From a virus: 64,000 bases of DNA. The notes under the pieces were generated by a model, which was given only the letters and a program-made list of their open reading frames with translations, did not search any database and was not told the origin of the DNA. A program made the translations under genes and the position numbers. How positions within the stretch are numbered: the stretch's first letter is position 1; each line of letters starts with the position of its first letter. Below, in pieces: positions 45,913-50,154 of this stretch. The DNA lies in the IMG/VR virus record IMGVR_UViG_3300034073_002131, positions 34,029 to 98,028 of that record; one strand, 5' to 3'.

Positions 45913-46263
45913 ATGTTGTTTATGAACTCAAACCCGCTCATGAAACCCTGGTACGATGCCTGCCAAATTTGGCCGGAATTGGAACTCTACAATCCGCCGA
46001 CCTTCAAAATCTCGGAACGGCTTACCCGTACCGCTGGCTTGTGTATTGTGGAGACTGGCGAGATTACCTTGTCCGGACCATACTTGCGCGAATACCGCAA
46101 TTATATGATGGGACAAATTCTCACCCATGAGACTGCGCATTATATCGACTACTGTTTAAACGGTTGGCACAAATATAAGCGTCATCATGGCAAGCAATGG
46201 CAGGAAATCATGTATAATCTAGGCTACAAACCCGAACCCTTTCACACAATGGAATTGAGATAA
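45913..46263 (+). CDS. SprT-like zinc metalloprotease
   Basis: RLTRTAG...I.LS...HETAH...HGKQW. Confidence 0.8.
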   Translation: MLFMNSNPLMKPWYDACQIWPELELYNPPTFKISERLTRTAGLCIVETGEITLSGPYLREYRNYMMGQILTHETAHYIDYCLNGWHKYKRHHGKQWQEIMYNLGYKPEPFHTMELR

Positions 46264-46736
46264 TGGCAATCAAGCGAATCAGAATTTACGATATGGATGG
46301 CACAATTGTATGCTCCTTGCATCGTTACCGGACCATTATTGATGAGCGTGGCGAGCGTATCGACCTAGAATATTGGCGCGAGAATGAATACCGCGCGCTT
46401 GACGATTCCCTGCTACCGCTAGCAGAACAATATCGCGCAGACCTTGCCGATCCTGAATGCTATACCATCATTGCCACTGCGCGCGTACTAGGTGAACCAG
46501 ATATGCAATTTATTAGGGAGACACTAGGCGAACCCGATTATATCGTTTCCCGTAAATCGGGCGATACGCAATCGGGTCGAACTCTGAAAATCGGTGGGCT
46601 AGCAAAGTTTTTTAATCTTGTCAACTTCAAAACCGATGACGTTATCTTTTATGAAGATAACGCGGAATATCTGAAAGCCGTTTGTGACCGGTTTGATATC
46701 CGTGGAGTTTACATTCCAAGCCGTCAAGGGCACTAG
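46263..46736 (+). CDS. HAD-superfamily phosphatase
   Basis: DMDGT motif I, TAR motif II, YEDN motif IV. Confidence 0.8.
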   Translation: MAIKRIRIYDMDGTIVCSLHRYRTIIDERGERIDLEYWRENEYRALDDSLLPLAEQYRADLADPECYTIIATARVLGEPDMQFIRETLGEPDYIVSRKSGDTQSGRTLKIGGLAKFFNLVNFKTDDVIFYEDNAEYLKAVCDRFDIRGVYIPSRQGH

Positions 46737-48746: not shown

Positions 48747-49073
48747 ATGGCTGAAAAAACCGTGAACTACACTGCGGAACAAACCGCGAAACTTGTGGCC
48801 GACTATCAAGCCGGTGTAACCGTGGAATCAATTGCGGAAGGGTTGGGCAAATCAGTTCGAAGCATCGTGGCGAAACTGTCACGCGAGGGTGTTTACCAGA
48901 AAAAGGTTTATACCACAAAAACGGGCGAACCCGTTCAGAAAAAGGATATGACAGCCGACGCAATCGGTCGAATCTTGAACCTTTCGGAAAGCGATACCGA
49001 TTCGCTCACCAAAGCGAACAAGCGTGCTTTGAAAGCGATTTTCGAAGCGCTTGCAAACTCGAAACCCCTGTAA
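48747..49073 (+). CDS. T5 A2-like protein, copy 2
   Basis: Highly similar to 44394-44717; start MAEKTVNY. Confidence 0.75.
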   Translation: MAEKTVNYTAEQTAKLVADYQAGVTVESIAEGLGKSVRSIVAKLSREGVYQKKVYTTKTGEPVQKKDMTADAIGRILNLSESDTDSLTKANKRALKAIFEALANSKPL

Positions 49074-49120
49074 ACTGAAAAAACCCTAGGCTTTAGCCTA
49101 GGGTTTTGAAGGGATAAATT

Positions 49121-49306
49121 ATGCTCAATCATTCTGTTATCGCTATAATGCGCGATGGTGAAGGCTTTGTATCCGTTGGGTATGGTACTGATCCAGAATC
49201 AGCACTGCAAGATTTGCAAGCAAATCTTGATGAAGAACTTTTAGACCATCGAATGATAACCTTTTACCGTTCGATGGACGTTAAAATTAAACTGTGCATA
49301 GAATAG
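49121..49306 (+). CDS. Hypothetical protein
   Basis: ORF with SD, followed by terminator 49326-49348. Confidence 0.5.
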   Translation: MLNHSVIAIMRDGEGFVSVGYGTDPESALQDLQANLDEELLDHRMITFYRSMDVKIKLCIE

Positions 49307-49310
49307 CCTA

Positions 49311-49325
49311 GCATAATTCGTGCCA
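49311..49325 (-). promoter_or_regulatory. sigma54 -24/-12 site
   Basis: TGGCACGAATTATGC (GG-N10-GC). Confidence 0.6.
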
Positions 49326-49364
49326 GCCCCGAAAGGGGCTTTTTTTTTGTGTCCAGACCCAGCC

Positions 49365-49398
49365 CGGCACGTTTTTTGCCTTAGCAAGAATCGTGCCA
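49365..49398. promoter_or_regulatory. Two head-to-head sigma54 -24/-12 sites
   Basis: CGGCACGTTTTTTGC (+) and TGGCACGATTCTTGC (-), 4 bp apart. Confidence 0.75.
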
Positions 49399-49402
49399 GG
49401 TC

Positions 49403-49495
49403 TGGGCGCCGATTTTATCATATAAAATCGGGTGGTGTCAAGCGCAGAATTGTAACAATTTGTAACTGTTGCTTTTTTGTGTCAGGGTTTCCCCT
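49403..49495. repeat. Hairpin promoter plus TGTAAC box plus AGGGTTTCCCCT
   Basis: Same modules as 46801-46987. Confidence 0.8.
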
Positions 49496-49546
49496 AATTG
49501 ACACCGGCCCGGCGCGTATGCTATACTAGAAGGTTCGGGGTTTTCT

Positions 49547-49567
49547 AAATGCGAATGATTCTCATTT
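49547..49567. promoter_or_regulatory. Fur box-like site
   Basis: AAATGCGAATGATTCTCATTT; core AATGAGAATCATT vs Fur AATGATAATCATT. Confidence 0.7.
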
Positions 49568-49574
49568 GCACCAA

Positions 49575-49589
49575 GCAAGATTCGTGCCA
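49575..49589 (-). promoter_or_regulatory. sigma54 -24/-12 site
   Basis: TGGCACGAATCTTGC. Confidence 0.75.
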
Positions 49590-49595
49590 GCCATA

Positions 49596-49615
49596 GTTAG
49601 TGAGCGCTTACTAAC
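49596..49615. promoter_or_regulatory. SlmA-binding-site-like palindrome, copy 3
   Basis: GTTAGTGAGCGCTTACTAAC. Confidence 0.65.
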
Positions 49616-49620
49616 CTCCA

Positions 49621-49707
49621 GGGGGGGGGTTGCGCCAGTGCAAAACCTTGTCAAGTGCAAAATCTTGCGCGTGCGCCAGTGCAAAACCTTCAAGTGCAAA
49701 ATCTTGG
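49621..49707. repeat. G9 tract plus near-perfect ~36-bp direct repeat x2
   Basis: TGCGCCAGTGCAAAACCTT(GT)CAAGTGCAAAATCTTG twice. Confidence 0.85.
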
Positions 49708-49845
49708 GGTTGCCTGTGAGTGCTAAACCTTGTATAATATTTATATTGAGTCAGTGATCAAGGCGTCCAAACCCTAAAAAATCCTGACTTGATTCCCAAG
49801 CCTAATCCCTGTATAATATTTATATTGATTGATTGGAGAACCCAA

Positions 49846-50154
49846 ATGACTGACAAAGTAATGAACTATACCCCTGAACAGGTTCAGGAACTGGTCCAGA
49901 AGTATCAGCAAGGCGTTAGCGTTGAGCAACTGGCCGAGCAAGTAGGTAAATCCGTGCGTTCGGTGGTTGCTAAGCTGAGCCGCGAGGGTGTGTATGTGGC
50001 TAAGACTCGGAACACACAGGCGGCCCGAGTCACCAAAGCTGAGCTGGTAGAGCGCATCGCCCGAGTATGCGATCGTAATAGTGAACAGTTTGAAAGCCTA
50101 GAAAAAGCAAATCAGGATGTTTTGACCCGCCTGGTCGAAGTGCTCAAAGCCTGA
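49846..50154 (+). CDS. T5 A2-like protein, copy 3
   Basis: NYTPEQ...GKSVRSVVAKLSREGVY; GGAG SD; two tandem promoters upstream. Confidence 0.75.
   Translation: MTDKVMNYTPEQVQELVQKYQQGVSVEQLAEQVGKSVRSVVAKLSREGVYVAKTRNTQAARVTKAELVERIARVCDRNSEQFESLEKANQDVLTRLVEVLKA

Follow-up and report, generated by a model that had tools for sequence, protein, structure and literature searches.

Sigma-54-type -24/-12 elements clustered in a gene-free region of a T5-like phage and recurring in its relatives

Sigma-54 (RpoN) serves enhancer-dependent promoters of the -24/-12 type, among them glnAp2, pspA and pspG, with the consensus YTGGCACG-N4-TTGCW. In the prevailing view, all three gene classes of T5 and its relatives are transcribed by the host sigma-70 polymerase, and the stop signal of their two-step DNA injection has been unexplained for decades. 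The sigma-54 holoenzyme is inactive when it binds its promoters, and it can repress where its site overlaps another promoter (PMC4591121). At intragenic sites of E. coli and Salmonella the polymerase is likewise bound, and these sites are mostly inactive (PMC4591121, PMC3844500). For T5, the injection stop signal has been proposed to be an array of paired DnaA boxes, in a work that mentions neither sigma-54 nor promoters (Davison 2020, bioRxiv 10.1101/866236). Sigma-54 sites as such are textbook material, and one phage user, Pseudomonas phage YuA, has been published according to the account in PMC10914365. Sigma-54 sites in T5-like phages were the subject of no paper that our literature search found, nor did it return a transcriptome of a Vibrio T5-like phage. 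Here we describe four sites of the sigma-54 type in a T5-like phage, and their counterparts in metagenomic and cultured relatives.

The gene-free region and its four sites

The window, that is, the whole 64,000-nucleotide stretch that was analysed, is the final 64 kb of a 98,028-bp IMG/VR phage genome (39.6% G+C), the large terminase of which is 47–49% identical to those of the Demerecviridae (T5-like phages). A block of small plus-strand genes lies to the right of the terminase genes, at 44.4–49.3 kb, and is regarded as pre-early-like because it contains a homologue of T5 dmp; homologues of A1 and A2 were undetected in this phage. Between this block and the first early genes sits a gene-free, repeat-rich control region (49307-49845), flanked by two D5-like DNA-binding genes. 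Upstream of this region come first the dmp homologue, at a distance of 2.6 kb, and then the terminase genes, an arrangement also seen in phage PG07; the assembly hides the true terminal repeat. The record ends in a 126-bp repeat, beginning with a tRNA-Leu gene (C1 1-83 and 97903-97985), which is probably an assembly overlap rather than a true terminal repeat. The features of the region and its surroundings, in window coordinates, are:

46263..46736, plus strand: counterpart of dmp, a pre-early gene of T5 (tblastn match to the T5 protein at 5e-11)
49080..49107, both strands: bidirectional terminator just upstream of the control region (promoter/terminator scan and sequence)
49121..49306, plus strand: 61-aa ORF, final gene of the plus-strand block, no family match
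49307..49845, no strand: modular control region of 540 bp holding sites 1–4 (ORF list, sequence, promoter/terminator scan, modules of relatives)
49311-49325, minus strand: site 1, sigma-54-type, TGGCACGAATTATGC, 9/10 against TGGCAC-N5-TTGC
49325..49349, plus strand: intrinsic terminator closing the pre-early-like block (promoter/terminator scan)
49353..49408, no strand: extended palindrome of sites 2 and 3 plus CCAGACC/GGTCTGG arms (folding)
49365-49379, plus strand: site 2, sigma-54-type, CGGCACGTTTTTTGC, 9/10, left half of the facing pair
49384-49398, minus strand: site 3, sigma-54-type, TGGCACGATTCTTGC, 10/10, right half of the facing pair
49412..49441, minus strand: sigma-70-like promoter TTGACA-18-TAAAAT, 11/12, leftward into the facing pair (scan)
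49498..49527, plus strand: sigma-70-like promoter TTGACA-18-TATACT, 11/12, rightward (scan)
49550..49570, no strand: Fur-box-like palindrome TGCGAATGATTCTCATTTGCA, recurrent beside sigma-54 sites
49575-49589, minus strand: site 4, sigma-54-type, TGGCACGAATCTTGC, 10/10, 4 nt from the Fur-box-like palindrome
49596-49615, no strand: GTTAGT..ACTAAC palindrome GTTAGTGAGCGCTTACTAAC, directly behind site 4
49630-49705, no strand: four AGTGCAAAAYCTTG repeats, right of the sigma-54 sites
49710-49738, plus strand: sigma-70-like promoter before the D5-like gene (scan)
49789-49817, plus strand: sigma-70-like promoter before the D5-like gene (scan)
49846..50154, plus strand: D5-like DNA-binding protein gene, first to the right, preceded by the two promoters above

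The first-pass annotation had listed four -24/-12-like sequences, and all of them were found as it gave them, with correct coordinates and strands. The GG and GC dinucleotides are exactly 10 bp apart within TGGCAC-N5-TTGC in every one, as it had claimed, and sites 2 and 3 do stand face to face across 4 bp (49380-49383). The pattern GGCACG-N5-TGC matches four times in the 64-kb window, against 0.12 ± 0.33 in shuffled sequences (n = 100, maximum 1), and a search of the entire 98,028-bp genome returned sites 1–4 as its sole matches. Their presence, uniqueness, location and conservation pattern are direct observations. The idea that they are chance matches, for which only the short length of the motif speaks, is refuted by these shuffles and by the conservation described below.

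The three minus-strand sites aim back into the plus-strand genes. The earlier statement that the cluster has no gene to drive holds for these three, which are antisense to plus-strand genes and lack the co-orientation with a downstream gene expected of promoters, but not for site 2 (+), which faces the D5-like gene at a distance of 460 bp, across intervening sigma-70-like promoters. Site 1 adjoins the plus-strand terminator hairpin and is directed into the 61-aa ORF, and its placement beside the terminator is kept in the close relatives L005-L012. A transcript from site 1 would run for about 220 nt to the bidirectional terminator, in antisense to the 61-aa ORF; any antisense transcript from site 3 would likewise fall on this ORF.

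Four sigma-70-like promoters were found in the control region, one leftward and three rightward. The facing pair is located at about +8 to +40 of the leftward one, and the rightward promoter at 49498-49527 meets site 4 head-on, at about +40 to +55. This overlap is present here and in the closest relatives, and is absent in a more distant clade. A palindrome, CCGATTTTAT..ATAAAATCGG, encloses the leftward promoter, and GGCGCC comes next (49407-49442; for example, 3361-3398 in L025); the module is conserved, and the side on which the sigma-54 sites lie differs by clade.

Other elements of the region also recur. The Fur-box-like palindrome in the form AATGAGAATnATTCTCATT is, we presume, close enough to the Fur box consensus for a putative Fur assignment. 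This form is also found beside sigma-54 sites in L005, L013, L060 and the unrelated contig L097, and the palindrome appears in PG07 (L208, record 109.6-110.1 kb), with at least eight copies in the distal untranslated region of that phage, and in phage My1 (L215, about 7350). The GTTAGTGAGCGCTTACTAAC palindrome behind site 4 has one to three similar counterparts, of the GTGAGYACTCAC type, in this region of the relatives. The AGTGCAAAAYCTTG repeats stay to the right of the sigma-54 sites in every relative, irrespective of site orientation, and similar GAGTGCAAAAG / GAGTGCGGATTCTAT repeats occupy the matching place in PG07 (record 110.13-110.25 kb). No DnaA box (TTWTNCACA) is found in 49307-49845, and the 12 in the window, against 9.5 expected, represent no enrichment. 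An Rfam search of the region gave only sub-threshold hits, on the terminator, and megablast against cultured phages gave no near DNA match. Two contigs from four DNA runs (X1-X4) cover the stretch without change. A more abundant, about 90% identical relative in the same samples has 90 other letters in place of 49064-49383, and so is without the 61-aa ORF and sites 1 and 2, with site 3 and the leftward promoter hairpin kept.

Regarding the machinery that could use such sites, no PF00158 match, the mark of a sigma-54 activator, was found in the genome, and the phage encodes no sigma-54 DNA-binding domain; it would therefore borrow the host enzyme. ARAGORN identified 21 tRNA genes in the genome and a permuted two-piece tmRNA at C1 8482-8879, 25 kb before the window. 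Its tag, ANDETFALAA, points to a host among the Beta- or Gammaproteobacteria.

Distribution in metagenomic and cultured relatives

A set of 80 related metagenomic loci was collected via the D5-like gene, and the 800 bp upstream of that gene were scanned. At least one site was present in 36 of the 80. The density, 98 sites in 64 kb of upstream sequence against 41 in 508 kb of flank, represents a 19-fold excess, and near-complete genomes of relatives contain 0–2 sites elsewhere. The TGGCAC and TTGC boxes are fixed across the relatives, whereas the spacer, the copy number (1–7), the spacing and the orientation vary. Many relatives have a single asymmetric copy only. The window's own clade carries 4–7 copies, mostly on the minus strand, some of them 18 bp apart and with varied spacers. 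In a distant clade the exact 15-mer of site 3, spacer included, is invariant and on the plus strand, either as one copy or as two tandem copies spaced by 26 bp, to which a third, inverted one is sometimes added; this 15-mer is the version kept by most relatives and by Vibrio phage Achelous. Tandem copies peak at periods of 25–28 bp. From clade to clade the sites change orientation, whereas the order of the neighbouring modules is preserved. The primary sites of the distant relatives (n = 27) are directed toward early genes, and co-orientation with a downstream gene is found in many relatives, so that the absence of a gene to drive is not a general property. The leaders from the sites to the next gene measure 300–750 nt and contain sigma-70-like promoters.

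The 66 distinct sequence contexts of the motif reveal further preferences at positions that the search did not fix: a G follows TGGCAC in 50, a pyrimidine precedes TGG in 51, and the spacer, though variable, is T-rich at -17 to -14. W follows TTGC in 40. The unfixed positions reproduce the sigma-54 consensus, and fixed boxes amid a changing spacer, copy number, spacing and orientation are the conservation pattern expected of sigma-54. The sigma-54-type identity proposed in the first-pass annotation is backed by this consensus match and by the conservation of the boxes. We consider the sites to be, with high probability, docking sites for the host sigma-54 polymerase. A consistent upstream palindrome that could serve as an activator site was not found among the relatives. 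Candidate NtrC-type sites, GCAC-N7-GTGC, were noted in seven relatives and rejected, as their arms co-vary like plain hairpins and are uncoupled from the sites.

Sites of the same type are found in cultured T5-like phages. Vibrio phages PG07, X1, D254 and 234P7B have 5–9 each, Vibrio phage Achelous one, Aeromonas phage AhSzq-1 three and Pectobacterium phage My1 one per terminal repeat, and none occurs in T5, Serratia phage Slocum or Proteus phage Stubb. According to the annotation of PG07, X1, 234P7B, AhSzq-1, My1 and Achelous, the sites are confined to the first-injected dmp-A1-A2/small-gene region and, within it, lie mostly in untranslated gaps. Their spacers vary while TGGCAC and TTGC stay fixed. 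The facing pair is also present in PG07, X1 and 234P7B; in PG07, where it spans 106930-106962 of NC_048041, and in phage X1 it lies between two divergent pre-early operons, with one half toward each. PG07 has a further site, 109111, 80 nt upstream of gp154, and a weaker look-alike before a terminator. A site aimed into the small-gene operon from its 3' end is found in PG07, AhSzq-1, 234P7B and My1.

The same gaps contain Fur-box-like palindromes, DnaA boxes, LexA-like CTGT-N8-ACAG boxes and AGTGCRRA repeats, and the module set is therefore common to the cultured phages and this window. This suggests a general array of candidate host-factor sites in the untranslated gaps of the first-step-transfer DNA. 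In PG07 (L208, record 106.9-110.0 kb), perfect DnaA boxes TTATCCACA are mixed with LexA-like and sigma-54 sites, and mixed arrays of these three kinds are also seen in My1 (L215 7240-7870) and Achelous (L216, record 120.7-120.85 kb). The DnaA box comes within about 10 nt of a sigma-54 site in PG07 and Achelous.

The hosts of the cultured relatives (Vibrio, Aeromonas and Pectobacterium) have RpoN. The only protein common to the block of this phage and the first-step-transfer regions of the cultured phages is dmp, and the D5-like protein had no tblastn match in cultured phages. A DNA-binding protein common to these phages is thus no explanation of the motif, and a universal host factor is the best account of it. 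This bears on the possibility that the motif is merely sigma-54-like and serves as the operator of some other phage or host DNA-binding protein. The two D5-like genes flanking the region would supply such a protein, palindromic pairs would suit a dimer, and the 15-mer of the distant clade is invariant down to its spacer. An operator is nevertheless improbable, given the single asymmetric copies of many relatives, the free variation of the spacer around fixed boxes in the close clade and the cultured phages, the restriction of shared proteins to dmp, and the agreement of the unfixed positions with sigma-54.

Facing pairs and secondary structure

The facing pair and its flanks have a strong folding potential. 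The 63-nt stretch 49350-49412 folds at -33 kcal/mol on the plus strand (z -5.3) and at -36.7 kcal/mol on the minus strand (z -5.9), while the region of site 4 shows no excess structure (z 0.18). The pair could accordingly be read as a structural element, namely a backup terminator, an RNA hairpin, a cruciform or a recombination site, with an incidental likeness to sigma-54 promoters. As a terminator, it has a stable stem in this phage and follows the intrinsic terminator, but its T-run is weak.

The composition of the pairs argues otherwise. Across 39 distinct facing pairs the boxes are complementary in 92%, whereas the spacers reach 41% by Watson-Crick pairing and 53% when G-U is included. 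As the boxes are complementary and the spacers are not, what is kept is two independent sites and not a hairpin, and the hairpin was rejected as a general account of facing pairs, the spacers failing to pair or to co-vary. A purely structural explanation would also cover at most two of the four sites, and single and tandem copies are common. We therefore judge it very improbable as the origin of the motif, although the facing pair may have a structural side role in this phage.

The gap between convergent neighbours is tightly constrained, 27 of 30 such pairs being 3–7 bp apart. Between L005 and L006 (3393-3425 in each), the neighbouring proteins of which are 98% identical, the inner 20 bp of the facing pair are inverted and the arms kept. 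This inversion speaks for the structural reading; at a palindrome, strand switching or recombination would also be expected to produce such a change.

Facing pairs are not limited to relatives of this phage. Among 118 viral contigs with the 16-mer, 74 have no protein in common with this phage, and several of these unrelated contigs have 5–10 sites each. L085, without a detectable protein in common with the phage, has 10 sites in 3.8 kb. L097 has four facing pairs at 328-520, with a Fur-like palindrome and TGTGCAAA repeats alongside, and again no detectable shared protein. Dense sigma-54-type clusters, often with facing pairs, are present in L169, L093 and L111, for which no protein common to the phage was detected either. 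The occurrence of facing sigma-54 pairs in many unrelated viral contigs suggests that the use of sigma-54 by phages is under-appreciated.

Possible functions and comparison with known systems

The binding of sigma-54 polymerase to these sites, and what follows from it, we infer from the motif and its surroundings. The host enzyme would need no activator to bind and would form a stable closed complex that stays silent. Parked at the facing pair, it would follow closely on the start point of the leftward sigma-70-like promoter; at site 4, it would lie 40–55 bp downstream of the rightward one; and it would also be positioned at the 3' end of the final pre-early gene. There, the parked enzyme could occlude ordinary transcription at the boundary of pre-early and early genes or compete with it. 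Such putative silent occupancy is the function toward which we lean, tentatively and with somewhat less than even confidence, and it is slightly favoured over transcription fired by an activator. The boxes are kept while copy number, spacing (18 or about 26 bp; 3–7 bp in facing pairs) and orientation change, and selection therefore appears to look for occupancy and not for a particular transcript. The tight packing would preclude simultaneous firing, and the sites neighbour other candidate host-factor sites.

Several points weigh against silent occupancy. Simultaneous occupation of sites that are 18–26 bp apart or facing may be doubtful. The overlap with sigma-70-like promoters is missing in the distant clade. 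The early-gene-facing sites of the relatives, the divergent pair of PG07 and X1 and the gp154 site would fit ordinary promoters. Finally, the first-pass annotation had proposed that the sites are roadblocks, a claim contradicted in E. coli by 85 intragenic sites of the sigma-54 polymerase, at which expression of the overlapping genes was not lowered (PMC4591121). That study is the only genome-wide roadblock test that was found in the literature, and a simple roadblock to elongating polymerase is disfavoured.

Activator-fired transcription is the closest competitor, and we give it roughly one chance in three. Under this explanation the sites would be conditional promoters, fired by an enhancer-binding activator of the host in response to a stress or nutrient signal. 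Here, three of the four would yield antisense RNA over the last pre-early gene or genes, and the product of site 2 would be a transcript with a long leader, directed at the early genes. For most relatives, the sites would provide an extra, signal-dependent promoter for early genes. The sigma-54 consensus, the orientation of the primary sites in the 27 distant relatives, the PG07 and X1 pair in the gap of divergent operons and site 109111 before gp154 are all consistent with it, as are the neat antisense unit of about 220 nt that site 1 would produce and the recurrence of a 3'-end site directed into the small-gene operon. There is precedent in the sigma-54-like promoter of Pseudomonas phage YuA, which has a mapped start in the account of PMC10914365, and many gene-distant sites in E. 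coli are long-leader promoters. On the other hand, the phage lacks an activator gene, and no activator site recurs consistently upstream. Clades carry the sites in opposite orientations, promoters do not usually come in overlapping tandem and facing copies, and the leaders of 300–750 nt have sigma-70-like promoters inside them.

The first-pass annotation had added a possible part in an injection-stop signal, a role that is purely inferential. T5 itself is without sigma-54-type sites, and 49307-49845 is without DnaA boxes of the kind proposed by Davison. A modular array of host-factor sites (for sigma-54 polymerase, Fur-like, DnaA, LexA-like and SlmA-like proteins) in the untranslated stretches of the first-injected DNA might form a nucleoprotein complex that holds or stops the DNA at the injection pause, or might read out the state of the host before the second step, with the facing pair as a non-transcribing clamp. 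We regard this as unlikely. Were the clamp to exist, the facing pair with its gap of 3–7 bp would represent a phage-specific use of the sigma-54 polymerase.

The conserved motif and its confinement to the first-injected, gene-free DNA point to the recruitment of a second form of host polymerase at the stage of first injection in T5-like phages of Vibrio, Aeromonas, Pectobacterium and fresh water. As several of the carriers are cultured and their hosts tractable, the choice between a promoter, a silent clamp and a part of the stop signal can be settled in the laboratory.

Compared with bacterial sigma-54 promoters, the sites share the GG-N10-GC spacing, the extended boxes, the pyrimidine before and the G after them and the T-rich spacer, and the E. 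coli pspG site TTGGCATGATTCTTGTA has the same GATTC spacer as phage sites (PMC4591121). They differ in that three of the four are not co-oriented with a gene, in their facing pairs and tight tandems, and in being an element of a virulent phage in which neither an activator gene nor a consistent activator site is seen. YuA likewise has host-type -24/-12 elements and no sigma-54 of its own, as far as it is described in PMC10914365 (citing Ceyssens et al. 2008); its site is, in that description, a mapped promoter before genes, whereas the cluster reported here is gene-free, mostly antisense and in another, Demerecviridae-like family. The untranslated repeats of T5 (Davison 2020) resemble this region in being gene-free, rich in repeats and palindromes, conserved in order and proposed to bind host proteins; DnaA boxes are mixed with sigma-54 sites in the Vibrio and Pectobacterium T5-like phages, while T5 has no sigma-54 site. 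The silent or intragenic sigma-54 sites of E. coli and Salmonella similarly combine a strong consensus with a position that is often antisense or distant from genes (PMC4591121, PMC3844500), but they are single and scattered over the chromosome, whereas the phage has its sites multiplied in one cluster that is conserved in its syntenic position.
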